The position numbers and the translations under genes are program-made. Positions 41,765-61,099 of a DNA stretch of 64,000 bases are shown one piece after another; the stretch's first letter is position 1, and each line of letters opens with the position of its first letter. A model generated the notes under the pieces. That model had not been told where the DNA came from. It saw only the letters and a program-made list of their open reading frames with translations, and searched no databases. The stretch comes from TPA_inf: Saccharomyces. Taxonomy: Eukaryota. The stretch lies in NCBI GenBank assembly GCA_000146045.2, contig BK006934.2, positions 480,001 through 544,000 of the forward strand, given 5' to 3'.

Positions 41765-44689
41765 TTACTTATTGCAGTAACATAATGTACAATTGAGTTC
41801 CAGTACTTCGTAGTACATTCTGATTTTATATCTCAGAGCATCCAAGGTGTTTACGCATGAATAACCAAACCATGGAGGAGTTACTTTTACCTTTTTTTAA
41901 GATATTCAGCTAGTAACTAATTGTCGGAAAAACTTAACAGGTACAAGGCCATATTATCACGTAACAAACCTAATTTTTGTACGATATTAGTGCCCGAGAA
42001 TTTCTCCGTAGCGTAATTTTCTGCGAGAATTTCTGCGCAGTGCAAAGATATGCGACCTGACACTCTTTACGAAACTTTACCCCTCCCCCACCTCCACCTG
42101 CATTTATCCCGTCAAAAAGTGTCAATCACCTGGATGCATAAGGAGGAAAAATTATTCCAAGGATGTTGGACAACGCGAATTTTGGAAGTGACTTCTCATA
42201 AGCTTCTGATCTCTACTATATTCTTGTAATTTGGTGGGGTAGTGCAGGCTTACTGTGCGATGAGCAAATCCAGCGTATTGCTCACAGCGATAGGCCTTTG
42301 AAATGATATTGTTTGAATGCAAAACGCAGAAATGATATTCAACTTCATAATCTCATTAAACAAGATAGCATGCCAATAGAATTCCATTTTTTCCGATTCT
42401 TAGGCCATTTACAACCAAGTATCAACTTTCGTATAATTTTATTTCCATAATTATACGCAAATGCTGCAGTAGTTGCACATAGAATGATGATACGACCTAA
42501 TAAAGGAAAAGGGGAATCTGTTCTGAGCTGAAAACTGATTCAAAACTCAATTTGGACACTCGGTTCGGGTGCTGGCCAGCAATAGTTTAGTGTTATCATG
42601 TCATAATCTTCCTCATAGGTTTCAATGTAATATCGATAATTACAAAGTAGTTCCTTTTCATTTAAATTTATATGCAAGAAGATAAGAGTTGATGTAGCAG
42701 TGCACCAGTTTTGCTTTACAATTCTTACAGTTTTATGAAAAATAATCTCCAATATGCCATGCTGAACTGGCATTCTTTTTGAGTGCAAAAGGAGGTTTTG
42801 GAAAAACAAAGTCTTCTTCTGCGTGTTACTCTGAAAATGTTGAAAAATAAGCTGAATGGGGCATTACATGTTTTCATCCAAACATGCCTTGTCAATAACG
42901 AGATTCGCGACGTATTCTTTTAGTATTCTGTTCCTTTTTTTTTTTGCTCCGCGCGCACTTGAACATCTTGCATATTTTTCTTTTCTGTTTTCATCCAGAG
43001 GTTGTGTTCTAGGACTTTCTGACGGAGGAATATCATCAAATCATCACAATAAGATCAATTGCATGGGTTCCAGCACTTAGCCAAATGTACAAATCTTGAT
43101 ATTTACCGGAGACCAACCCTTAGTTTGAAGTGTGCGCTACCAGGGAATCTTCTTCGGTCATTATTTTCTATCTTCACGATAATCGATCCTCCTCCTATAC
43201 GTTAATATCGACTGATATCTAAATACATCGTTGAAGAACGGCGGAAAAATACTTATTTTCAGGTTGTCTTCGTTTTCACTCACGATAGCAATATGGATCC
43301 TTTCACAGCTCCTATCACCGCTGTAGTTTTTTATGACGCTTAATTTCCTGTTAATAAGTAAATAAGGTAAGTTGAAGGTCCTTCATACTGTGATCTGCAA
43401 TAAACCACATGGCTACCGCACTTCTTGTCACTATCCTATGTGGAGAAAACCCAGAAAAAACTTTAAAGCGTGATTGAAATCAATAATTTGGCAAAGAACT
43501 AGAACCATACGCAAGAAAACCTTCCAACTTTGGCATTGTACGCAGAAATGAGACACGTTCAAAGCACAGGTCTTGAAATTTAAAAAAGTTTCTCAAAAGT
43601 TCTCCCAAACCTTCAATTTCTATTGGTATAACAGTATTCTAGGAAGAAAACAGGCGAAGAAAGTTTCTTTACTTTCTTCCTTTAATAGACTTTCATGAAT
43701 ATCAAATGCTGTTGTTTTCAACTAAATCAGACAAGCAAAGGCGATTGCTAAAAGTGAACATATGGAAAATATATGGAAAAAATCTAGAGGCAACAAACGT
43801 TCGGGTTTCCTTTTAACTCCGAGAAAGAAAAATCATTAGAACTTCGTGTTAATCCTAATAGAGTTCAAATATGCTACTAGTCGTCAGAAACCTCAGTTAC
43901 ATGATTACACATTCTAAGACTTCACAAGTGAAAAATTTCCCGACGTTCATAGCATGTTACGTGATCGCGCAGGATGGGACAATTAAACGATCTTTGCAGT
44001 GGAGAAGGAATAACTTCCGGTTGCAGCTACTTGTCAAACAGAACACTGGTATGGATAAGATAATAGTCAGATCTTTTATTACTTATGAAACAATGTCAGT
44101 AACACAGCGTGTTTAACAGATAATGTTCTTTTAACAAAATTAAATGAGGTCTTTTATTGTGTGTGTCAAGTTGACAAGCCGCCTTTATTGATAGATCCCC
44201 ACTAAAAATACCAGGAAATGATGAGCTCGAGTCTTTGTGCCTTTCTCATCATGGACCATTCGCACATGCAGTGCTGCACAACAAAAGATAAATCACCAGT
44301 ATTAGGTGACTTTCAAAACACTAGAATTTAGGCACTTTCAACCCAGCCCAGCGCGTAGTAAGAATAAAGTAGGGGAAAACCTTACGAAAAGCCTCTTTCT
44401 TTTTTGTAAAAAATTCTGTTTTTAATAGCCAGTTCTTTAGTGATTACAGGTAAGAGGGTTTCATATTTTAGAAGTGCAGCCATGATGAAGCACTTTTGCT
44501 CATTTATTGCGAGAAGTTTAATAAGTAGTATGGTTCCATTTTCAAGAATCGAGGCACTGTTCCTTCCCAACCTTGGAATCATACTCCGAAAGGATTTCAA
44601 GCCGATTTAAATTCACCTGGTAACTTTCCTACGGTTTGGCCCAAGGTGATTATAATTAACTTGCGGCTTGTTTTCAGCCTGCGATCGAA

Positions 44690-44915
44690 CCTTTTTTACG
44701 CAAAAAAACCTTATTAATTAAGGTTTTGAAAATTTTCTTCTTTCCGGGAGATTTTCATGTAGCCTCGAGCTTCTGGATTCTCACGGGATTATCTCGCGTT
44801 ACATTTTTTACTTTCTTCTTTCTTTTTGACTTAGGATATACAGATGATACGTCATTGTGTCATAAAACCCGCTGTTGTGCAACAAAAGGGAAAAAGAAAA
44901 ATACTCCTTTTTAGG
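44690..44915 (+). repeat. Copy 1 of a diverged ~220-260-bp dispersed repeat family (core ...AAAATTTTCTTCTTTCCSGKAGATT...GATGAAGCAAAAGRGGAARAG...), 480-700 bp upstream of the FLO5 ATG
   Basis: Alignable by eye with copies at about 51600..51850 and 57960..58215 in the same orientation, at roughly 65-75% identity. Confidence 0.5.
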
Positions 44916-45391
44916 TCTTATAAATATTTTTAGCAGCCATCAAGTCCGGCTTTCAAACTTAATTTCACCCTTTTTCACGGCACCCTCGAGAATTACACTT
45001 TGGTTGCATGCAGGAGTACGCGAAATGCAGCATAAGCTACACATCTATGCGTAGATCGCTTAACCTCTAAAGGCCGTAAACTTTTATTTTGTTTTGCGCT
45101 CATTAAAACCTAGTGGGAGCTGGTAGGAAATAAGCTAGTAGCTTCTATGGATAGAATGGAAATAAACGTAGGTGTAAACACTATTGGTAGAGAAGTTCCT
45201 CTGGTCAAATTTTCATGGGAGATACGTTAAATCTTTCACAGTCTTATCGTTTTGAATCACTGGACGGTTCTGGTATTCTGCTTCATATTTCGACAAGATA
45301 ATAAATATAAAAAGAGCACCCTCATGATTTCTTGCTCTGCAGTAAATTCCGCAAATGATTTTCTTTAAATTGATTAGCACCACTAAAAAAA

Positions 45392-48300
45392 ATGACAATT
45401 GCACACCACTGCATATTTTTGGTAATCTTGGCCTTTCTGGCACTAATTAATGTGGCCTCAGGAGCCACAGAGGCGTGCTTACCAGCAGGCCAGAGGAAAA
45501 GTGGGATGAATATAAATTTTTACCAGTATTCATTGAAAGATTCCTCCACATATTCGAATGCAGCATATATGGCTTATGGATATGCCTCAAAAACCAAACT
45601 AGGTTCTGTCGGAGGACAAACTGATATTTCGATTGATTATAATATTCCCTGTGTTAGTTCATCAGGCACATTTCCTTGTCCTCAAGAAGATTCCTATGGA
45701 AACTGGGGATGCAAAGGAATGGGTGCTTGTTCTAATAGTCAAGGAATTGCATACTGGAGTACTGATTTATTTGGTTTCTATACTACCCCAACAAACGTAA
45801 CCCTAGAAATGACAGGTTATTTTTTACCACCACAGACGGGTTCTTACACGTTTTCTTTTGCAACAGTAGATGATTCTGCAATTTTATCAGTCGGTGGTAG
45901 CATTGCGTTCGAATGTTGTGCACAAGAACAACCTCCCATCACGTCGACTAACTTCACAATCAATGGTATCAAGCCATGGGATGGAAGTCTCCCTGACAAT
46001 ATCACAGGGACTGTCTACATGTATGCAGGCTACTATTATCCGCTGAAGGTTGTTTACTCCAATGCCGTTTCCTGGGGCACGCTTCCAATTAGCGTGGAAT
46101 TGCCTGATGGTACTACTGTTAGTGATAACTTTGAAGGGTACGTTTACTCTTTTGACGATGACCTAAGTCAGTCAAATTGTACTATCCCTGATCCTTCAAT
46201 ACATACTACTAGCACTATCACAACTACCACCGAGCCATGGACCGGTACTTTCACTTCTACATCCACTGAGATGACCACCATCACCGATACTAACGGTCAA
46301 TTAACTGATGAAACTGTCATTGTCATCAGAACTCCAACAACAGCTAGCACCATCACAACTACCACCGAGCCATGGACCGGTACTTTCACCTCTACATCCA
46401 CTGAGATGACTACTGTCACCGGTACCAACGGTCAACCAACTGACGAAACTGTTATTGTCATTAGAACTCCAACTAGTGAGGGTTTGATTACTACAACTAC
46501 CGAACCATGGACCGGTACTTTCACCTCTACATCCACTGAGATGACTACTGTGACCGGTACCAACGGTCAACCAACTGACGAAACTGTTATTGTCATTAGA
46601 ACTCCAACTAGTGAGGGTTTGATTACTACAACTACCGAACCATGGACCGGTACTTTCACCTCTACATCCACTGAGGTTACCACCATCACTGGTACCAACG
46701 GTCAACCAACTGACGAAACCGTGATTGTCATTAGAACTCCAACTAGTGAGGGTTTGATTACTACAACTACCGAACCATGGACCGGTACTTTCACCTCTAC
46801 ATCTACTGAGATGACTACTGTCACCGGTACCAACGGTCAACCAACTGACGAAACTGTTATTGTTATCAGAACTCCAACCAGTGAAGGTCTAATCAGCACC
46901 ACCACTGAACCATGGACTGGTACTTTCACCTCTACATCTACTGAGGTTACCACCATCACTGGTACCAACGGTCAACCAACTGACGAAACCGTGATTGTCA
47001 TTAGAACTCCAACTAGTGAGGGTTTGATTACTACAACTACCGAACCATGGACCGGAACTTTCACCTCTACATCCACTGAGATGACTACTGTGACCGGTAC
47101 CAACGGTCAACCAACTGACGAAACTGTTATTGTCATTAGAACTCCAACTAGTGAGGGTTTGATTACTAGAACTACCGAACCATGGACTGGTACTTTCACT
47201 TCTACATCTACTGAGGTTACCACCATCACCGGTACCAACGGTCAACCAACTGACGAAACTGTTATTGTCATCAGAACTCCAACTACTGCCATCTCATCCA
47301 GTTTGTCATCTTCTTCAGGACAAATCACCAGCTCTATCACGTCTTCGCGTCCAATTATTACCCCATTCTATCCTAGCAATGGAACTTCTGTGATTTCCTC
47401 CTCAGTAATTTCTTCTTCAGTCACTTCTTCTCTAGTCACCTCTTCTTCATTCATTTCTTCCTCTGTCATTTCTTCTTCTACAACAACCTCCACTTCTATA
47501 TTCTCTGAATCATCTACATCATCCGTCATTCCAACCAGTAGTTCCACCTCTGGTTCTTCTGAGAGCAAAACGAGTTCGGCTAGTTCTTCCTCTTCTTCCT
47601 CTTCTATCTCTTCTGAATCACCAAAGTCTCCTACAAATTCTTCTTCATCATTACCACCTGTTACCAGTGCGACAACAGGCCAGGAAACTGCTTCTTCATT
47701 ACCACCTGCTACCACTACAAAAACGAGCGAACAAACCACTTTGGTTACCGTGACATCCTGCGAATCTCATGTGTGTACTGAATCCATCTCCTCTGCTATT
47801 GTTTCCACGGCCACCGTTACTGTTAGCGGCGTCACAACAGAGTATACCACGTGGTGCCCTATTTCTACCACAGAGACAACAAAGCAAACCAAGGGGACAA
47901 CAGAGCAAACCAAGGGGACAACAGAGCAAACCACAGAAACAACAAAACAAACCACAGTAGTTACAATTTCTTCTTGTGAATCTGACATATGCTCTAAGAC
48001 TGCTTCTCCAGCCATTGTGTCTACAAGCACTGCTACTATTAACGGCGTTACCACAGAATACACAACATGGTGTCCTATTTCCACCACAGAATCGAAGCAA
48101 CAAACTACGCTAGTTACTGTTACTTCCTGCGAATCTGGTGTGTGTTCCGAAACTACTTCACCTGCCATTGTTTCGACGGCCACGGCTACTGTGAATGATG
48201 TTGTTACGGTCTATCCTACATGGAGACCACAGACTACGAATGAACAGTCTGTCAGCTCTAAAATGAACAGTGCTACCAGTGAGACAACTACCAATACTGG

Positions 48301-48619
48301 GGCTGCTGAGACAAAAACAGCAGTCACCTCTTCACTTTCAAGATTCAATCACGCTGAAACACAGACAGCTTCCGCGACCGATGTGATTGGTCACAGCAGT
48401 AGTGTTGTTTCTGTATCCGAAACTGGCAACACCATGAGTCTAACAAGTTCCGGGTTGAGCACTATGTCGCAACAGCCTCGTAGCACACCAGCAAGTAGCA
48501 TGGTAGGATCTAGTACAGCTTCTTTAGAAATTTCAACGTATGCTGGCAGTGCCAACAGCTTACTGGCCGGTAGTGGTTTAAGTGTCTTCATTGCGTCCTT
48601 ATTGCTGGCAATTATTTAA
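45392..48619 (+). CDS. FLO5: Flocculin (lectin-like cell-wall adhesin), 1075 aa
   Basis: It has a signal peptide, an N-terminal PA14/Flo lectin domain, and 8 tandem 45-aa Thr-rich repeats. A Ser-rich region follows, then three Cys-containing ~50-aa repeats, then a C-terminal GPI signal. Position next to YHR210C and the length argue for FLO5 rather than FLO1 or FLO9. Confidence 0.9.
46207..47286 (+). repeat. 8 x 135-bp near-identical tandem repeats inside FLO5 (45-aa unit [44 protein letters not shown])
   Basis: The CCATGG landmark recurs with an exact 135-bp period, for example 46235 and 46370. Copies differ by only a few substitutions. Confidence 0.9.
47716..48240 (+). repeat. Three ~150-bp Cys-containing repeats ([10 protein letters not shown]..CxE..[29 protein letters not shown]) in the FLO5 C-terminal region. 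Embedded in it is a short 21-bp repeat ([10 protein letters not shown]) at about 47869..47950.
   Basis: Seen directly in the FLO5 translation and in the DNA. Confidence 0.8.
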
Positions 48620-51599
48620 TAAAATTCGCGTTCTTTTTACGTATCTGTGTATCTTTTCTTTGCTAAATATACGCTGACATGAATTATTTTTTAACTGTTT
48701 CTTCTCCATACTTTCAAATATTCAAATTGAACTAAATGATAATTCTTGCGCTTCCTATTTTGAAAAAGTAGATATGTGTATCATAAAGAAAACGTTACTA
48801 TTATTGTCTTAGGCAACAAAAATCCATGAAAAGAATTTTACCGTTATCGATACCATTGTATTTATTTTATTTATTTATTTAATTTTTTTTTTTTTTGGTT
48901 TATATCCTGCAAACAACACTTCGAATTCAATTCGATATTTCATAAGTTACAACTAACACTTATAGAAACCGATGTATGAGTACTTATTATTAACGAGGAA
49001 AAATGGCCTATTTTGTTTAGCAATTAATGAACCATCGCCAATTTTTGCTTTAACAATTATTGCCATTTTCAGTAGTACTAACGTAAGATCTAGTGTGGTT
49101 CGCTTAGGATGTTTTTGAGTAGAAATCTGCTTACATGCCACACGCAGTACTTGAAACTTGAAATAATGGGGATAATTAGTTATTTAAAGTATGTGCTTGT
49201 TCTTTTATATTTATTTCGAATTCTTTTGCACTAGTATTTAAAATATCAGCAGAGGCGTAAAAGTGCACCAAAATTATTGTAAAACTACTTGCCCTAAAAT
49301 TGATACTTCATACTTGACATATTCAAAAGGGGTCCAAGTATAGATGCATCAAAAAAAAAAAAAATTATCCGATGATGAGCAAATGGTAGCTTTTCGTTCC
49401 CCAGGAAGTGTAGTAGTTCCATGAAGTCTAATGAGACTTTGGAAAAAGGTTTGTCACGAGCACCGAACTACTGTATTTTGGAATTTTGATAAACTTCAAA
49501 ACGGGAACGAAGTGTTAAACTTAGATGCGGTTGTTTTAAGCTTTAAAAGAGGAAAATAATGACTGGTGATAAGAAGTCAACAACGATTCAAAGCAGGTGA
49601 ATTTCCATTACGTTTCGCTTTTCAATTGAAAAAAATTTGGTGGTTATTCGTTTCTTGCTTGACCTCTTCATTTTTTATACTTCTGTGATGAGAAGCAAGT
49701 TCGAGGATTTTACGATAAAGCCTACTGGTTATATTTGTATAAATTAGAACGTTGTCCTTATTTCTCTTTTCGAACAGTATCAAAATAAAGTTTTTGATTA
49801 GGGCTAGATTCTCTTCAAGGAAGAGATACCTCACGTCTGTAATATCTAAGAGCTAATGTTTCGATCGAACTTTCCTTTGCTTTTTTTCTGGATCTCATAA
49901 TGTCCCACTGTATGTATGTGCCCTCGCACAGCTTTGCTCATCATAGACATTAATCATTGGTTGTATGATAAAAATATCGCAAGAATTATTCTAACGTTCA
50001 GATTAGATTCCAGCCATATTTCTGACATTTGTTTTATTAATAAAAATTTGGCGAATGTTTTGATAACTTGATAACTGCTGGTATTTCATTGTTGAAAAGG
50101 CATGATATTAGATGCACAAAGTATATTATAACTTATGATCAGAGATATAGGAACAAAAAAAAGGGAAAATTCATATCTATATGTGAAAATACCATTATTT
50201 CCTCTCCTGTTTAATATTCTGTCCTTAATTTTCATATTACATTATCAACTTTTGCATTTCAGTGTCCATTAAATCTTGGGACCATTTTCTCAATCTTCAT
50301 GTCGTCTTTTCACACCGTATATAATATACTGGTACTATAAGTACTAGTCGATAGATCGCAGTTGAGTCTTATTCCAACAGTTAATGATTCACTGAGCTTT
50401 CTGTTGCTGTAGACTTTCTGAGGCATCGTCGCTCTCTTCTATGTGATGCTACAACGGAACTAGGCTTCTTATATATCGTGGTCCTACAAGATCTTGGTAT
50501 CTCGTTTGCTTACTTTGAAGCTTCACTGATATATAGTATTTAAGCCACTTTTATGTTCATGGATAATCGTAATTGTACTACGCTGGTACCAGTTATGAAC
50601 CCTATCAAATCATCATTGAACACTGCTATTTTTAACTAATCAAGATATGTATGCGGCGTACTTTATAATTTCACGACACTATTGAAAGCAAACTAAAAAT
50701 CAAGTAAATACCTATCCAAGTTGCGGGCTCTGGATTTATGTGGCCTTAAATTTTCGACCTATGGTTCACTATTCAATACGAGAAAACCAAAATTAGGTAC
50801 AAGTACTGATTGCGTTCGTGATTTGAAAAGCAGCGTTAAAAGATTACAAGATTTTGCGTTTCCAGGCCGACACTTAACTTTAAGGTCTCGACTTGGTAAC
50901 ATGAGTTGCCAAAAGTTTTTTTCTCCTATCTGAATATGGGGAACCGGAATCTGTCTTTGACCTGACTTTCAAATTGTTGCATATGTAAAAAAAAAACAGA
51001 AGAAATATTATCTTCTCCTTCTAGCGATGCAAAAGGATTCATTACAAATCGTCGCAAAGGCTGACAAGTTGCAGTATATTCACATTGCTTATTTGAAGTA
51101 CGTTTGTATACACATCGATAGTATTCATTAACACCACAACTGCTGTGTATACTATGTCAAACAGCACAATAAAGCCCGTCATTTTCGTACCCGCTCATTT
51201 CCAATAGGTATCTAAACTTACAAATGTGGTACACTACTTCGAATTCATTAATCGATATTGAATGCTAAAAAGTCTGCGATTTCTTCCTCAACGTTCAAAA
51301 ATCTCATCCAAGGCATAATCCCACATATTGAAGATCGCTACCAATTGTTACAGGCGAACTGAAGTTTTGGAAATGAGCTTGTACTTAGTAAATTTCTCTT
51401 TGCTTGCATCTTTTTCTTCCATGCCAAAAAATAAAAGATACTCATTTTAAAAACGCAGCCATATTGACTAAGTAAGTAATCATAATACTATGAGTAATTT
51501 TTGAGTACTGTGCTCATTTACTAGCTGCTTTTCTGAGAAAGATCCTCGATAATCAATTCCAGGTTAGTGGGGCGCTTCTACGGCCTCTTCTAACCAATT

Positions 51600-51850
51600 G
51601 TTCCCCGTGAGTTGCTTTCTCTGAAAACCTTATTATACATTAGAGTTATAAGAAAATTTTCTTTTTCCCGTAGATTAACTTGCAGTGCCGAACTTCTAGA
51701 TGTCACACCAGACCGTTTGACACCGCCATTTTCCTTCCTTTTCGGAAAAATGTGCCGATAAATGGTAAGACGCGACGCCACTGCTACGAATATTACGCTT
51801 ATGATGAAGCAAAAGGAAAAAGCAAGTTCCCCTTAAATTCGTATAACTGT
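51600..51850 (+). repeat. Copy 2 of the same repeat family. It sits in the middle of the stretch with no long ORFs and carries a decayed YHR212C-like minus-strand ORF
   Basis: TTTTCTTTTTCCCGTAGATTAACTTGCAG...TGATGAAGCAAAAGGAAAAAG. The minus-strand ORF 51590..51781 shares LQVNLRE+NFL with YHR212C. Confidence 0.5.
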
Positions 51851-54800
51851 TTCATCAATCTTTAGTTCTGGCATTTGAAAGTTAATTAAACTTTTCTTCG
51901 TGGTTTCTACAGGAGTTCTGCATGTGCGTAATTCAAAGCCTGTGAAGGAAAAAGTATTGTCCTAAACAACGGTCGTAGAATACGTCAACTGTAGTTTAAA
52001 ATATTTTCTGGCTCTACTCGGTGCGATAGGTCTGGCTCTTTTCTATTTACTTTTGTTTGGAGTTGTTGAGGCCGATACCCGTCTAGATGTAAATATGAAA
52101 TAACAGTTCGAGGTTTTATTACGAGAATGAAAAGGGTAATGGATTGGAGCATGTGTAAATGTCAATAGCAGAAAAAATTTACCGCAAATTGTTTCGTAGT
52201 CTTATCTTCATCGGACACTCAAGGGTTGCATAATTTTTACCCAAAGGAACAGTATACTTTTTTGATAAAAAAATCTTGTTACCTATACAGTATTGCAAGC
52301 ATTTTCAGAAACTCGTCTTTTGAGTTCTAAATGCATCATACAACAACAACAACAATTTCTTATTACTGTGTCCTTTTGGGATTTTTCAGCCTTCCTAGCT
52401 TACCCAAAATAGCCTCTCAAGGTGAAAAAACCATGCCTGCAAGCGGATCTAAGGATGAGTAGCTAGATTACAATAAATCCTGAATTTTCTCTGAGTGTCA
52501 ACTTTGTCATCGCTTGTTAAAGGGCTACTACGCTGAAAAAGAACCTGAACTCTGTTAATAGGTTGAAGATTTTATGACTTGGTATACTATTCCATACGGC
52601 TGCTCTCCTGATTGCGGTGGGTCATTGCTATAACAGTAAAATCAAGGAAGATAACAGGAAGAGTAACTTTAGTACAATAAATCTGTTGTCTCCCGAGGAT
52701 TATAATTGTTCGGCTTTCACACTAAGTTGAAAAGGGGGACTCAGGAAATGACAGGGTACGTTTTAGTTTCTCCAAATAAATCTTCCACACCCAGCTTCAA
52801 TGTGGTAAACGGAGGAAAGTTGATTAATTGATGTTGGCACTTATATTTAACTGATGTAGAGAAGAACAACATACTACTAACGTCACAGTCAATTGTGCCA
52901 GTTTTCCAATCAAGTATTTCGAGATAATGTAAAAGTAATTGATATATGTTCGTACTGGTTTCCCAATTTCCGGGAAAAACTATGTACATGGGTGCAATTC
53001 CTTGTGGTTATTTCCTTTTAGGTTATATTGCCAACCACATCATAGTACTATTTGCGGTCACTTCAGAAGATATGTTTGCTCCTTTGATCATGATATAGAC
53101 CAGGCCAACTGTACCGCTTCAGGCTTCAAAGCATTAGGAATAAGCACCACTATTACACAACCATAGAGCTACTCTTACTGTCACGTAGGTAAAACACTTG
53201 CTACTACACACACTCGTAGTGACTCATCTGACTATATTGCCGGTTGTTAAGAGGCACCAGTTAAGCACGCCATCAAGGGTACCGAATAATCTCTTCTGTA
53301 TCAAGTATTCTACCTTTATGTCTGACCCACGTATTATGTGGAGCAATTACGTATTTTTCTCATATCAGCTTTGTTTTTACTCAACTTTGATATCTTAGAG
53401 AAACAGATCTTGATGTTACAGCAAGGTCAGGAAAATATTTTGACAAAAACATACTAGTTTCATCCTTAGTAGTTGATTCTATGAATGCTGTACTTGAAAA
53501 TATTGTTCATAAAATCCATAAGTTTTACCAACGGTATAATATCCTGCTATTAAATCTGCAATTGCTTTTGCGAAAAGAAGGAAAACATGCAAAACAAAAG
53601 CAAAAAAAAATTGGCACCCCAATTTCTTATAATATAATAATATAACGGAAGTACACCATGCTTTCAATAATAAGATGTTTCCTGAAAAGGGCAACTATCT
53701 GACTAGTTCAGAGCCATGCAAAAGTTAAGGATGAAAATGCCAAATAAGAAGATATTACGGAGTACATTCATTTCAAAAAGAAGAATGTATACTGCTTAGA
53801 TAAGAAGATCAAGTTTTTATATTTCCGACCAAATAAGCCATCGAAAACTTTTGATGCACCAAACACCGTTCTTGAGAGCCAAGCACAGATGCAATTGTTC
53901 TGCCCTTCTTCCAAATTATGAATTGTGCATCATATCGTAAGGCCAGCCACATAAAAAAAAGGAGCAAAAAACTCAGTATACAGGCGAATATCCATCATAC
54001 AGTCTAGCTGCCCTCACTACTTCCAAAAAAATGGGCTAGTGTTGTACGGTTTATGCCATATATCTAGAGTTAGCATAACTATGCACTACCGCTTTTCGAA
54101 CAAAAAGTTTGCGAAACCTAGTTCATTGAATATGACTTACCCAAAATGGATACCAAGATCCTAATAATAAAGTCAATAACTTGAATTTTAGGTGCCATTA
54201 TTTCCAACAATCATTATAGGCTAACTCTACCAGCAGACTAGAATACCGTTCTTCTAGTTGAGCACATGGTCAAAATAGTCAATAAAAAACGCCCAGAAAT
54301 GGCTGTAAATTAGTGTTTGTAGTACACAAAATAATTTCCTAATTCCTTCCAAATGGGGTTTTCAAAAAGCTGACTCACGTAATTGATCAATACTTCACTA
54401 AAGAAGAATCATATGAATAAAACTAAAATCAACACTAACTGAGAGACTTAGCGGCCAAAGCTTAATCATCATTACATAGAGTATATGAAGGGAGTAAGTG
54501 AATATGCAAGGGTGGGAAACGGCAAAGCATTTTTATGCAAAAAGCGTATTTACAAATCCCGTAAACTCATGATGTGAATTTTGTAACCAGCTTTAGCTGA
54601 GATTATTTCTTTTGCAAAAGAAATATTCAATAAATTAACAATTTTCAAATAAATTACCAATCAATGGTCGATAACTTGCAAGAGAGATATCATCATTTGG
54701 CTTTTGTGATAAATTTACAAAACGTAATGTTGTATCGAGATATATTGAGTTACAAGTTTTCGTCTCTTTTTCCGAAGCGCCAGACTCCCGTATAAAAAAT

Positions 54801-57758
54801 AAGGTTTATAGCGGGCATTATGCGTAGATCAGGACTTAAATTTTTCATTGCAGAAGTCCAATTTCAGACTCAGTATGGTTTGTTGTAGTGCTGGTGTAAA
54901 AGATGGTGTTATTACTTAAGACTGATTTGGTTGCTCAGGTATTTCATTCAATAAAATTGTGAAAGAGAACCTGGAATATAGAATGGAAATATATATCCTG
55001 CTACTAACCCCAATGGAAGGTGACGATCACTTCTTGTGCGTTCCAATCCCAGTTTTTGAATGTGCGAGTGGAAAAATTCTAGAGGAACAAATTGATATTT
55101 TCAAATCAGAATTCATCAAATATATGTACTCTGTAAAAACCAAGGATGTGATGAAGTTGAGATATTGTCTTTATGGGAAATTGACTTCTTTGTTTAATAT
55201 GAATAATGCAATTTTACTCCTCAGCTCAAGTAGTGTAAAGATTCAGTAGCCGTCATCAAATAGACTAAAAATTAAAAAATAAGATTCAATGTGGTATGAT
55301 AATGATAGATGAGAAGAAATTGCAAGAAAACGAATAAATACCTTGTCTCTTTGCACTGAATATCTTAAAGGACATACAGTCGCAATAACGTCTACTCATT
55401 GGTGTGTGTCAAAAACAGTACGTTTATTATCTGGACAGCCAAAAAATAAGATCTATTCAAACATGGAATATAGCGTATTTTTATTTAATCACGGTACAAT
55501 GGAGATATTTGCATGCCTATAGAAACAAGTAATAGTTATCATATTATTTTCTAGATTTTGTCACTGAACTTTTCCACTAATGAATCCTATCAAAATTATA
55601 TATCCAATATGGCTGCATTCCCAACTAAATATTAAAATGCCGCTAAGTATAAAATGTCTCCGCATCGGTAAAAAGCATTACAAATGCGTATTATACTAGC
55701 GAGAAAAAAGTATAAGTATCAATGCCAATCACCCTCTGACCATAAACTTTCTAAACATGAATAATAAAGGTGTTGAGAGTTATTATCCTAATTGATCAAT
55801 TAATTTGAAGCAAAGTTATTATGTTAAAGAAAAAGGGATGTCACAATCCTAACTATAATTTTTGCACTATACTCTGTAGGCGTACAAAATGGTTTGTACC
55901 GACTATATTCTCTTTATTTTTGACAATCCTTTACGATATATGATTAAGAATACCATGTTATTTTTATGAAAATCTGTGATTTTTTTGTTTTCATACACTT
56001 TTTATTTTTGTCACGTAGTGCACTTTGATTAATACAAAAAAAAATGCTGCAAAAGCATCGACTACATAAATTCATTAGGACGCATTCCTCATTACCACCT
56101 GGGTCTAATTTTTATTTTGAAATTGATATTATTCTTTATATGATGAGGTAAAAAGCATTATATTCGTTGTAAACTCATATACTTATCCTCATTTTAGGCA
56201 CCATCAGGGACTAAGGGCTAAAGTATCAGAGCCGCATTTCAACAGTGTACAGAGATTTTAGAAACATTATCACGCACTGCCTTTTGCTTTGTTTACCCGT
56301 AATGAGTATACAGTGGATTTTCTGGTGCTAAAGCATATTGCCCTTTCGGCAATACTTGATGCCCTAAACATTTTCATCCTGGAACATACGAGTAAGAGCA
56401 CATTTATGTGCCTATATTCCTCGTTTTTTACTGGTGCTGAATTTCTTATTTTCCACAGATAACAATCATGTTAATAAATTATGCACTGTGCTAATTTTTC
56501 AATTAAGGTTCTATTACCCCTCTATCACCGACAGAAACACGTAATGATGTGTTATTTCCATTATAATTCCGTAAGAATGGTGTTTATAGGTAGTCTAAAG
56601 AACGTGCATCAGAGAAGAATGACTGTCGCAAAAAATGACTATTCTTTACCTTTTCAAACTTAACTGAGATAGTTATCTCTATTATTACCAGTGGCACACA
56701 CGCGAACTACATCACTCACCACTATCGTCTTAGGAACTCAAGATTTTATAGTAATGCAGCCGAAGACATTCAAGTCCTGAGAGAAAATGTAGACATTTTA
56801 AGAAAAGTACCGGAAATAAAGCACATGTAAAGCATTGAGCTCTGTACTCTATAAAAATTAGCTGCATTCAAACAACAATGTTTGAAATTTTTGCAAAAGT
56901 TATTGAAAAAGATTGCTGTTTTCAGCCTTGTTCAGATCATGTCTCAAAAATGAGAAACTGGAACTCTCATAATCAGTACCTCGTATTTTTTTTTCCTTAT
57001 AGTTTCGTTATTAAAAATTTTTTTGCTGCTAATTTAAGTACGCTTTTGGTCATAAATGCTACCCACCAGTTGAATTATTGACATGATTAAAATACATTTC
57101 AGAACTTTACGGATTAAAAACTTTAAAGAACCTTTCAATCCATGTTGCTGGAGGGCCATGAATCCACGAATTACAGCAAAAGAAGACAGTAACTACTTAG
57201 GGTTCAATAATTACTTGCATAAACACACACTAACAACCAAATCGTACTAAAATTTGCAATTAACAAAACTCCATCATATCACGCTGAATTATGTAGGGCT
57301 TCTTAATGCAATAGGTTGCCTGAATTTTGCTTACTCGTGCTGCCGGGAACACTTAGCAGTTGGGAGGCCGTTTCTCCCATATATTTCATAATTTTCTGTC
57401 CTTCTTAGAGTAGGATGCTGAAAATCAAAAGAAGACCGTCAATAGGACCAGATTTTGTGGGTCAATTTTGGGCCAGACACATGATACCCTAGGAAGTTTA
57501 ACGGTATACAACTCAAGGACGAGGAGTATTCGGAAACTACCGGTTTTTAACAAGCTGCAAATTTCCAGTAGCTGTTTTGGTTGCGACTACGGATAAAAAT
57601 TCATACTTTAGGAAGTGAAGCAAGATAAAAAATCATGCTGCATCCTAATTCGTGAAGTTTGTTAGGAATATTATTGTAAACAAGGAACCGTTTCAGTAAA
57701 CTTGCTCTCTACTCTTCTAAGCTGTAATTTAAAAAAAGCGATAAAACAATGATTTTGA

Positions 57759-58094
57759 TTATCTGCAACTTCTGGAAACTCGAGATACTACGCTAGACGA
57801 GATACCTATTAATTGTTTTCCTAAAAAATCAGGAACAGTTCCTGGCAGCTTTCGGCTCCTTCTTGTTCTGGAAAGGATCTTCAAATCCGCTTCCACGTAG
57901 CAGTCCTCGCTACGACTTCTTCTGAAGTATTTTGATTTTTGGCTGCATTTACCTTTTATTGCCGAAAATCTTATTTTCCAAGAAAAAAGCTTATTTTGCA
58001 TTAAGTTTAAAAAATTTCTTCTTTCCCGTAGATTGACTTGCAGCGTCAAAATTCCGGAGGCCTCACGAGATTTTTTGACATCGGTTTTTGACAT
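57759..58094 (-). CDS. YHR212C: Small ORF of 111 aa (MSKTDVKKSREASGILTLQVNLRERRNFLNLMQNKLF...), the S288C dubious ORF YHR212C. It lies entirely within repeat copy 3
   Basis: The ATG is at 58094, and the track ORF is N-terminally extended. It is probably conserved only because the underlying DNA repeat is conserved. Confidence 0.3.
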   Translation of the reverse strand: MSKTDVKKSREASGILTLQVNLRERRNFLNLMQNKLFSWKIRFSAIKGKCSQKSKYFRRSRSEDCYVEADLKILSRTRRSRKLPGTVPDFLGKQLIGISSSVVSRVSRSCR

Positions 58095-58215
58095 CTCTTT
58101 TTCCTTCCTTTTTCTTTCTTTTCCTGCGCACGCCGATAAAGAAGTAGTACAACAGACAACGTCAAAATGATCCTCTTGTGATGAAGCAAAAGAGGAAGAG
58201 TATACTCCTTTTCCG
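57960..58215 (+). repeat. Copy 3 of the same repeat family, 530-780 bp upstream of the FLO-like pseudogene. It overlaps the dubious ORF YHR212C
   Basis: TTTCTTCTTTCCCGTAGATTGACTTGCAG...GTGATGAAGCAAAAGAGGAAGAG. Confidence 0.5.
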
Positions 58216-58741
58216 CTTGTACAAATATTTTTTTTGATAATAAAATTTGGCACTTCAGAGCTTATCGTATCTTCTCCCGGAGTTCCTCAAGACTTATACT
58301 TCAGCCCGTTTAGGAATGCATAAAAGCAAATAGGATTCGTTACAACTGCTGCAGGACTCTTTAGGACTGCATCAAGGTAAGCCTCGCTGCACCTAAACGC
58401 AAAATGTGGTTGTAACCTTTTTAATTTTTTTCTTGAACTTGTTGAGTCGTAATAAATCGTTTCTGGGAAGTGGAAGGTAATAATGTAATGGAATCGGCGT
58501 TACTCGCATGTGCAGATATCAGCGACAAAAAGTGTTGTAGGGACGTTTCGATACCAAAATTTCCTAAATACAGCGCAGGAACATCACTACGCTAAACAAA
58601 TCGTAGCGCATACATCTGATCGAAAAAAGACAGTTCCCAAAACAATGACATATGAAGAGACCAGCATCAAAATTTTCATCATTAACAGCATGGCTAAAAG
58701 TTATTGTTTAATATACCCATACCTGATTGACGAACCAAGAA

Positions 58742-58945
58742 ATGCCTTATCACTATTTATTTTTGGCACTCTTCACCTACCTGGCCACGTCCAATGTTGT
58801 TTCAGGAAGTACACAAGCATGCCTGCCAGTGGGCCCGAGGAAAAATGGGATGAATGTCAACTTTTATAAATACTCATTACTGGATTCAACAACGTATTCC
58901 TACCCGCAATATATGACTTCTGGATATGCCTCGAATTGGAATTAG
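58742..58945 (+). pseudogene. 67-aa N-terminal fragment ORF of the FLO pseudogene (S288C YHR212W-A-like)
   Basis: Described in the previous entry. Confidence 0.6.
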
Positions 58946-59150
58946 GTTCCGTTGGCGGACAGACGGATTTCTCAATTGACTACGATCTTTCTTGTGTTAT
59001 CTCTTCAGGAACTTTTAAATGTGCTCAATCAGATGCTTATGGAAACTGGGGATGCAGAGGTCATAGTGAATGTTCAAAATAGCCAAGAAAGACCTATTGG
59101 AGTACTGATTTACTTGGTTTCTTACTATCCCAAAAAACGCTACTCTAGAA

Positions 59151-59747
59151 ATGACAGGTTACTTTTTACCACCACAAACAAGTTCTTACACGTTCAGGTT
59201 TGCTAAGGTCGATGACTCTGCAATTCTATCAGTCGGTGGTAACGTTGCGTTCGAATGTTGTGCACAAGAACAACCTCCAATTACATCGACGGATTTTACA
59301 ATCAATGGTATTAAGCCATGGCAAGGAAGTTTGCCTGATAACATCGGAGGGACTGTCTACATGTATGCAGGCTACTATTATCCGCTGAAGGTTGTTTACT
59401 CCAATGCCGTTTCCTGGGGCACGCTTCCAATTAGCGTGGAATTGCCTGATGGTACTACTGTTAGTGATGACTTTGAAGGGTACGTTTACTCTTTTGACGA
59501 TGATTTAAGTCAGTCAAATTGTACTATCCCTGATCCTTCAAAACATACTACTAGCATCGTCACAACTACTACCGAACTGTGGACTGGTACTTTTACTTCT
59601 ACATCTACTGAAATGACCACCGTCACCGGTACTAATGGTCAACCAACTGACGAAACCGTTATTGTTGCCAAAGCTCCAACCACTGCCACCTCATCCAGTT
59701 TGTCATCATCTTCTTCAGAACAAATCACCAGCTCTATCACGTCTTAG
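59151..59747 (+). pseudogene. YHR213W: 198-aa internal fragment ORF of the FLO pseudogene (S288C YHR213W-like)
   Basis: [30 protein letters not shown]... is near-identical to the FLO5 PA14 C-terminal half plus one A repeat. Confidence 0.6.
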
Positions 59748-60548
59748 CATCCAATTATTACTCCATTCTATCGCAGCAATGGAACTTCTGTAGTTTCTTC
59801 CTCAGTCATGTCTTCCTCGGTCATTTCTTCTTCTGCAACGACCTCCACTTCTACATTCTCTGAATCATCTAAATCATCCGTCATTCAAACCAGTAGTTCC
59901 ACCTCTGGTTCTTCTGAGAGCGAAACAATCTTAGTGATTGCTGGCATGTCATTAGCGACAAGACGCTTATTACCGTAGTAGCCCCCCAAGGCAAACATCT
60001 CTTTATCAGTAATATCCAAAGCTGTTCAACTTCTCGAATTGGCCCAGGAAAAGAGCATTGGGGCGGCAACTAACTCTGGCATACTTACAGTTTCTGCTCT
60101 TGACAGCGCTAAAAAAGGGCTTGTTTTGTAATGCCCGGTTCGCAATTCTACAAGTACCACGCACTAGCTGCTAAAAGTGTCTAACCTTGCGAACAACTCT
60201 GGACTTTCTTATGAGAATCCCATCGTCAAGAAACAAAATTATACAGACAGGCGTAAATGTAGCTCGTAAGCGCCTGATCAAGTAAGCCAAATGCGCTAAC
60301 TTGAGGAAATATAGCCATCTAAATCTCTGCAACATGCCAATTCGCACGTGACTTGAAACTATGGAAAGTGTCTAGAAGATTACCAAGAACCACGTTATTT
60401 GAGAGAGGATGGCAAGGTGACGACAATCACACCAAGACCACATTTTGGGTGCGCCTGGAAGCAAGACCTGAGAAACTGGGCCAAAATATTCAAACCAAGC
60501 ATAAGATAGTTGGAGGTAGGAATACACTATCTAATCTGTGCTGATGAA

Positions 60549-60782
60549 ATGCTGGCGAAAACGGGCGATGTAGTGGTACAGAAGGTGCCGGTTATCCGTT
60601 TGTCCGTTTTTCTTCATTTTTTTTTTGTTTTTCCCTTTTGTCTTTTGCACCGCTTATATATGGGTATGAAACAAGTTCAAGAATTTATAATGGAACCCAA
60701 AGGTTCAGTCTTTGTAGTTCGAGCGACATTGCGCGTTTCCTTAGAAAACGCTGGAAAGATATTCTTTAACGAGACGGAGTAA
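60549..60782 (+). CDS. 77-aa hypothetical ORF (S288C YHR213W-A-like); no recognisable domain
   Basis: The ATG is at 60549 within the track ORF 60510..60782. It is of dubious coding status. Confidence 0.2.
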   Translation: MLAKTGDVVVQKVPVIRLSVFLHFFFVFPFCLLHRLYMGMKQVQEFIMEPKGSVFVVRATLRVSLENAGKIFFNETE

Positions 60783-60799
60783 TTCTCGTCAGGAATAGG

Positions 60800-61099
60800 A
60801 TGTTGATTGATTTTTGCTGTAGTTATATAGCAGGGACCCACGGAAGAGAGCGAGCGCCTTCTTTCACAGGGACTTTTGTCAGCCACGTCTCCGCGGAAAA
60901 CAATTGCCGTCCGCGTCGCAGTGAGATTACGCAGCCGTGCGCTTCAGGGACAGAAAAGAAGCATTTCGCGGCTACGGAGAAACAGTGCACTAACTCTCTC
61001 GAGGGTAGCCGCAAAGATTTCTTGTCTCTTCCATTAGGACATAGCTATCTTTTTCTTTTCTGTTTTTGGCGTATGATCTGTTCTGAGCCAAAGTTATAG
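60800..61099 (+). CDS. 99-aa hypothetical ORF (S288C YHR213W-B-like) in a local GC-rich island with overlapping ORFs on both strands
   Basis: The ATG is at 60800. Antisense ORFs of 63 and 69 aa overlap it. Confidence 0.25.
   Translation: MLIDFCCSYIAGTHGRERAPSFTGTFVSHVSAENNCRPRRSEITQPCASGTEKKHFAATEKQCTNSLEGSRKDFLSLPLGHSYLFLFCFWRMICSEPKL

Follow-up and report, generated by a model that had tools for sequence, protein, structure and literature searches.

Three diverged copies of a short repeat lie around FLO5, on the right arm of Saccharomyces cerevisiae chromosome VIII, and the question raised by this locus is what these repeats are, and why the middle one appears to stand apart from any FLO gene. 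They were analyzed within a stretch of 64,000 nucleotides, here called the window (contig BK006934.2, forward strand), whose coordinates correspond to those of chromosome VIII minus 480,000. Very probably, each repeat is a paralogous copy of the control module that lies upstream of FLO1-type flocculin genes, and each unit of an array of three has one. Genes other than FLO5 and YHR213W are named after the yeast annotation.

The three copies lie on one strand (Table 1). The initial annotation had described them as a diverged family with shared orientation, and pairwise alignment bears this out: self-comparison by blastn of positions 42000-61000 aligns 44703-44790 with 57983-58072 (74% identity, E 3e-7), 44705-44778 with 51624-51701 (75%, E 1e-5) and 51624-51725 with 57985-58083 (76%, E 4e-12), and a separate repeat search recovers the identical triplet (families D8 and D9). 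Homology, as aligned by MAFFT, runs over about 275-300 bp per copy; within the window a profile of the three copies matches only 44691-44963, 51613-51886 and 57972-58265, so that the coordinates first given were correct, with errors of no more than about 50 bp at the 3' ends. Identity, 74-76% in the local blastn segments, is 61-70% in a core of 115 bp and 57-65% over the whole module, to be compared with 37-42% in shuffled controls and 46-51% in adjoining promoter DNA; the 65-75% originally estimated is acceptable for the core, and slightly generous for the whole module. Of the two sequence blocks originally quoted as shared, the second is present exactly (58178-58200), and the first is present with one substitution (58010-58043).

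The position of the core relative to FLO-type start codons is also shared. It lies at -689..-602 from the ATG of FLO5 (45392), at -707..-606 from that of a decayed FLO relic described below (52331) and at -759..-659 from that of the FLO pseudogene (58742). The earlier statement that copies 1 and 3 sit at the same distance from the start codon can be maintained, allowing for differences of about 70 bp. In a seven-sequence alignment of upstream regions of 1.1 kb, the module is the sole island of raised identity, 0.54-0.66 against a background of 0.25-0.45.

The same element is found upstream of other FLO genes, whose loci, labelled L011 to L022, were retrieved via their proteins. Made from the three window copies and no other sequence, a profile identifies the region upstream of FLO1 in L015 (9247-9357, E 5e-9) and L014 (9253-9359, E 2e-7), and blastn aligns L014 9249-9307 with 44688-44743 at 85% identity (E 3e-10). 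The window cores align with positions -754..-640 of FLO1, and the core is carried also by the FLO9, FLO10 (two species) and YFL051C-like loci, which, like FLO1, lie outside the set on which the profile was built; the FLO5 alleles of other strains (L018-L020) have retained the module. The conserved FLO promoter or 5' regulatory module supposed by the initial annotation is supported, and the comparison with FLO1 and FLO9 which it had proposed gives matches at both.

Between FLO1 and FLO5, upstream similarity detected by blastn is limited to the core and to the last few bases before the ATG. At the 5' end, the two open reading frames (ORFs) share about 86% identity or more, and the promoters (44963-45391 compared with L014 9365-10000) cannot be aligned by blastn; because of these two features together, it is suggested that gene conversion, or homogenisation, between FLO1 and FLO5 halts at the start codon.

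Table 1. Modules, boxes and genes of the window, and module copies at other FLO loci (L numbers denote retrieved loci).
Feature	Position	Strand	Details
Copy 1, putative upstream control module of FLO5	44687-44963	+	blastn, nhmmer; conserved core 44687-44799, -705..-593 from FLO5 ATG
Copy 2, putative module of the middle unit	51611-51886	+	core 51611-51725, -720..-606 from relic ATG
Copy 3, putative module before the FLO pseudogene	57965-58265	+	core 57965-58083
Flo8-type boxes, copy 1	44705-44727		AAAACCTTATT 44705-44715 (+); inverted AAAACCTTAAT 44717-44727 (-)
Flo8-type box, copy 2	51624-51634	+	exact
Flo8-type boxes, copy 3	57965-57975; 57985-57995		AAAATCTTATT and AAAAGCTTATT, respectively; 20 bp apart start to start
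Block TTCTGGA, copy 1	44771-44777	+	resembles a heat-shock factor (HSF)-type half-site
FLO5 ORF	45392-48619	+	intact gene of tandem unit 1; 1075 aa
Decayed FLO relic	52331-53157	+	Flo N-terminal PA14/GLEYA-type domain; tblastn, profile hidden Markov model, Smith-Waterman against shuffles
FLO pseudogene, tandem unit 3	58742-59926	+	YHR212W-A-type fragment 58742-58945; YHR213W 59151-59747
YHR212C, dubious ORF	57759-58094	-	111 aa; overlap with the copy 3 core over the first ~40 codons
FLO1 module	L014 9247-9364; L015 9241-9358		about -754..-640 from ATG
FLO10 module, S. eubayanus	L016 9045-9162		profile search
FLO10 module, VIN7	L022 9063-9181		E 3e-16
FLO9 module	L021 8978-9056		E 5e-4; AAAACTTTATT and TTCTAGAA recognisable
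YFL051C-like FLO gene module	L013 9294-9416		profile search

The distribution of the element bears on a different explanation, according to which the repeats are fragments of dispersed or mobile elements (a solo long terminal repeat, a tRNA-related or a subtelomeric repeat) lying near FLO genes by chance. The region is indeed subtelomeric and rich in duplications, and a distal module copy, about 4.8 kb upstream of FLO1, has no detectable gene behind it. However, the window contains exactly three copies in 64 kb, and in about 400 kb of FLO loci all matches but one lie 0.6-1.0 kb upstream of the start of a Flo N-domain, in the same orientation; no tRNA was found in the window by a tRNA scan, no family by an Rfam scan, and neither terminal nor inverted repeats by a repeat search. 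Chance proximity is, on these grounds, extremely unlikely: the copies align significantly, and the element is not a long terminal repeat, a tRNA or another ubiquitous repeat.

The distal copy (L014 5096-5442 and L015 5205-5428, both chromosome I-type) is nearest to window copy 3, with 72% identity over 257 bp (E 7e-25). A search for a Flo coding remnant behind it in L014 gave nothing better than E 0.33, and upstream of FLO5 the window holds no counterpart to it.

The element type is already known, and has been functionally studied at FLO1. This gene features a single DNase I hypersensitive site of about 100 bp, around -700 from the translation start, which coincides with the focus of Tup1 and Cyc8 in chromatin immunoprecipitation (ChIP), and which is reached by Swi-Snf once Cyc8 is removed (Fleming et al. 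2014, PMC4316177). The window cores resemble this site in size (about 100-115 bp) and in distance from the ATG. Two differences should be kept in mind: occupancy and accessibility were measured at FLO1 only, the ChIP-exo calls for the window copies being at feature level (YHR211W, YHR212W-A); and the middle window copy has no live gene to repress.

At its 5' edge, the module contains a putative Flo8-responsive element. The Flo8 site of S288C FLO1, given by Kobayashi et al. 1999 as quoted in Fichtner et al. 2007 (PMC2780560), is AAAACCTTATTCTACGGAAAACCTTATT, at -751..-724; its layout is AAAACCTTATT-N6-AAAACCTTATT, with a spacing of 17 bp. In the window the 11-mer AAAACCTTATT occurs exactly at 44705 and 51624, and with one mismatch at 57965 and 57985; allowing up to one mismatch, 12 matches are found in the whole window where 3.9 are expected, a number reached in none of 100 shuffles. 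Orientation is the same as at FLO1 and position nearly equal (about -750 in FLO1): boxes start at -687 from the ATG of FLO5, -707 from that of the relic and -777/-757 from that of the pseudogene. Elsewhere they start at -754/-734 in FLO1 (L014), -956/-940 in S. eubayanus FLO10 (L016) and -937 in VIN7 FLO10 (L022).

The copies differ from the FLO1 element in the state of the boxes: copies 1 and 2 have one exact box, whereas in copy 3 both boxes carry one mismatch. The closely spaced pair is intact in copy 3 only, the second box being inverted or degenerate in the other two; in copy 1 the box and its inverted partner form the palindrome AACCTTATTAATTAAGGTT, and a second box upstream is degenerate (GAACCTTTTTT). 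The spacing of 20 bp found in copy 3 is that of Sigma1278b-type FLO1 alleles (19-20 bp in L014 and L015), in contrast to the 17 bp of S288C FLO1.

Other blocks are shared as well. The TTCTGGA of copy 1 aligns with TTCTAGA in copy 2 (51694-51700) and TTCCGGA in copy 3 (58052-58058), and in the modules of FLO9, FLO10 and the YFL051C-like gene a full HSF-type TTCnnGAA is aligned with these TTCnnGA blocks. An A/T tract leads into TTTTCTTCTTTCC, and a (C/T)TGCAG block is found in most copies. By their shape, some of these may be Skn7/Sfl1-type or Phd1/Sok2-type sites, which we take as a lead only. Mcm1 (CCW6GG), Mig1 and Nrg1 motifs are not conserved across copies.

The middle copy, called an orphan by the initial annotation, does have a FLO sequence behind it. 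An ATG at 52331, 707 bp downstream of the box of copy 2, is followed by a signal-peptide-like stretch, and FLO5 gives two weak, collinear tblastn matches in this region. A profile hidden Markov model of Flo N-terminal domains, built from homologues, matches 52694-52825 (profile positions 122-165, LFGFhT...EMTGYvL) and 53032-53157 (positions 237-278, F..YVcSFDhDidQaNCT), in different frames of the plus strand and at the expected spacing. The frame of the first match, read backwards, leads to the ATG at 52331. In Smith-Waterman alignment this frame, extending to about 52846, matches FLO5 residues 2-166 over its full length (Z 10.2), and the second piece, 53032-53157, located after a frameshift, matches residues 237-277 (Z 10.6); neither score was equalled in 500 shuffles. 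The suggestion of a lost FLO-like unit marked by the middle copy was therefore well placed, since the decayed N-domain is collinear with FLO5, and the term orphan has to be dropped.

The relic is old, because its stop density is close to random (10 stops in 166 codons, about 11 being estimated for random sequence) and its coding DNA is just 52% identical to FLO5, the alignment baseline being 46-51%. It is present also in other strains and in chromosome I-type contigs, the chromosome I twin of the region; copies 2 and 3, too, have nearly identical counterparts on chromosome I. Neither FLO5 repeats nor C-terminal remains are found behind it by tblastn at E 10, and no earlier description of it was found in a literature search.

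The outer units of the locus have been reported. FLO5 (chromosome VIII 525392-528619) and YHR213W (539151-539747) are listed as a tandem array by Despons et al. 2010 (array 67), as are FLO1 and YAR062W (array 49; PMC2822764 and its supplement). FLO5 contains about eight head-to-tail coding repeats of 135 bp (46217-47326). In the pseudogene the Flo N-domain is broken over three frames, and one 135-bp unit is kept (59568-59713, 88% identical) before homology to FLO5 stops near 59926. Modules are spaced by 6922 and 6359 bp, each lying about 0.6-0.75 kb upstream of the ATG of its unit. Because a relic stands behind the middle copy and core-to-ATG distances match, we read the region as an ancient array in which three units, each a promoter with its gene, follow one another head to tail, namely intact FLO5, the decayed relic and the YHR212W-A/YHR213W pseudogene. 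Its outer two units, their common orientation and the inclusion of the pseudogene are as in Despons et al.; unlike the arrays of that report, which have two members, this one has a third, central member with its own module, and the analysis shows that duplication included the promoters. The apparently empty 9 kb between FLO5 and YHR212C hold this decayed unit, and the array counts three members, not two.

Since ORFs overlap all three copies, the repeats might be conserved as genes for small proteins, either YHR212C, on the minus strand, or plus-strand ORFs of 61-62 aa (44726-44914 and 51680-51865), and the translations of YHR212C and of 51590-51781, on the minus strand, are in fact alike over the core. 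This likeness is, however, confined to a stretch of conserved DNA free of insertions and deletions. Identity is flat across codon positions (0.57/0.57/0.60 and 0.57/0.54/0.46), copies 1 and 2 contain 5-8 stops in every frame across the span homologous to YHR212C, and the insertions and deletions, of 1, 2, 7, 10, 11, 29 and 32 bases, are mostly not multiples of three. These features rule out YHR212C as a conserved protein, in keeping with the earlier view that it is kept as DNA, and leave the coding explanation, as a whole, very unlikely.

Nucleosome-free regions often fire divergent transcripts. The repeats might, along these lines, be non-coding RNA genes or promoters, similar to the ICR1/PWR1 toggle at FLO11, and an antisense or divergent transcript could have left YHR212C as its footprint; several Xrn1-sensitive unstable transcripts (XUTs) of chromosome VIII are in the Cyc8 peak list (PMC10446238). 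This possibility, compatible with the repeats being control modules, is improbable as the explanation of their conservation: they have no Rfam match, and a protein-binding site already published falls on the conserved blocks (PMC2780560). A structured RNA is ruled out, RNAalifold predicting 0 pairs in seven cores on either strand.

The A/T-rich composition of the core, and its accessibility to nuclease at FLO1, would also suit a replication origin (autonomously replicating sequence, ARS) or another site of chromosomal maintenance. Fixed orientation and distance to FLO start codons are unexpected for origins, and the exact 11-bp ARS consensus (WTTTAYRTTTW) is found in none of the seven copies, which rules out an ARS; we attach to this explanation hardly any probability.

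Considering the repeats as FLO1-type control modules, a mechanism may be proposed. The 5' end would carry, by homology with FLO1, the Flo8-responsive boxes, and the core of about 100 bp would be a constitutively nucleosome-free, DNase I-hypersensitive platform, where sequence-specific factors would recruit the co-repressor Cyc8-Tup1. Over the promoter, the co-repressor would arrange nucleosomes in an ordered and deacetylated array and, upon lifting of repression, Swi-Snf and the activator would be recruited to the same site. Copies 1 and 3 would do the job of the FLO1 module for FLO5 and for the pseudogene transcript, respectively, and copy 2 would be a leftover module. The logic is that of the FLO11 control region (shared Sfl1/Flo8 site, ICR1/PWR1 RNAs), where Flo8/Mss11 and a Tup1-linked repressor are opposed at a distant site upstream of an adhesin gene; in contrast to the shared Sfl1/Flo8 site of FLO11, repression of FLO1 is reported to be independent of Sfl1 (PMC2780560).

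Published signals hint, indirectly, that copies 1 and 3 may work as the FLO1 module does. In the RNA-seq tables of a tup1/cyc8 mutant study, YHR213W is up by log2 4.3 and 3.8, and its twin YAR062W by 5.5 and 4.7 (PMC10446238), the YHR213W signals in RNA-seq and arrays being possibly inflated by reads or probes common to YAR062W, FLO1, FLO5 and FLO9; similarly, overexpression of MSS11 raises YHR213W and YHR213W-A, with possible cross-mapping among paralogues (PMC3276193). The ChIP-exo peak lists of the former study include YHR211W for Tup1 and YHR212W-A for Cyc8 (PMC10446238 supplements), again with possible cross-mapping, and consist of feature names devoid of coordinates, hence giving no base-resolution placement on the window copies. 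Other points weigh against the interpretation. Copies 1 and 2 have a single intact Flo8-type box, and FLO5 is reported not to be induced on restoration of FLO8 in S288C (PMC2780560); because of these two facts copy 1 may be a weakened version of the Flo8-responsive module. The FLO1 loci compared here, L014 and L015, are from strains other than S288C, and positions are shifted by a few bases from the published ones. Finally, no convincing module copy was found at the FLO1 orthologue of S. eubayanus (L011 and L012) or at a FLO gene of S. uvarum (L017), the best E being 0.07-0.14.

At the FLO1 locus of S. eubayanus, neither a tandem pseudogene nor a relic lies behind the gene. The array may therefore be younger than the S. 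eubayanus lineage, or lost in it.

Long-range repression by Cyc8-Tup1, and remodelling by Swi-Snf, are commonly studied on the FLO1 control element as a standard model. The DNA-binding protein recruiting Cyc8-Tup1 to it has not been identified: single deletions of the candidates Mcm1, Phd1, Skn7 and Yap6 had no effect (PMC4316177), and the partner of Tup1, unknown, is not Sfl1 (PMC2780560). The core of about 115 bp is the only conserved island in the otherwise unalignable promoters of FLO1, FLO5, FLO9, FLO10, the pseudogene and the relic, and it supplies a footprint of a few short blocks to be mutated or used as bait. What is new here amounts to modest additions: a footprint recognized across the family, paralogous copies of it on chromosome VIII, and a FLO relic not listed before. 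Relic and footprint apart, the finding is an ordinary one, in which a known promoter element was duplicated together with the genes it precedes.

The middle core is 61-70% identical to the other two, a closeness equal to that between the modules of the two better-preserved units. Because this core is well kept while the coding DNA of the relic has decayed to baseline, the middle module could act alone. We put forward tentatively, and consider rather unlikely, the combined proposal that the middle module (51611-51886) was kept by selection after the death of its gene, and that the non-Flo8 footprint (GAAAATTTTCTTCTTTCC ... TTCnnGA(A)) is the site of the Cyc8-Tup1 recruiter. If true, the middle module would be a docking site for Cyc8-Tup1 and Flo8, organising repressive chromatin over the 10 kb that separate FLO5 from the pseudogene, or would drive a non-coding transcript. 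As an alternative to continued selection, the relic gene may have been a divergent paralogue already while alive. Polymorphism among 10 strains is too sparse to judge constraint: 500 bp contain about 3 variable sites throughout, and the middle module contains 1.

In some natural strains, a fusion gene of FLO5/YHR213W type (L020 10001-11017 and downstream; protein P0001) is directly followed by the genes normally found beyond YHR213W. In these strains recombination between units 1 and 3 removed the roughly 13 kb in which the middle module and the relic lie, and this class of deletion has also been seen experimentally (PMC5073950).

In one strain (L013 10001-21308), a FLO gene lies beside genes of the left arm of chromosome VI (RGD2/EMP47/SWP82/ALR2-type), and is followed by the block of small-ORF, Hyphal_reg_CWP, PHO and IMD genes that follows YHR213W and YAR062W. 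Because the FLO gene of L013 carries this same downstream block, the subtelomeric block located after YHR213W is found on a third chromosome end. Finally, an imperfect palindrome of 28 bp, GATTATTTCTTTTGCAAAAGAAATATTC, is located at 54601-54628 of the window, where no genes lie between the relic and copy 3.

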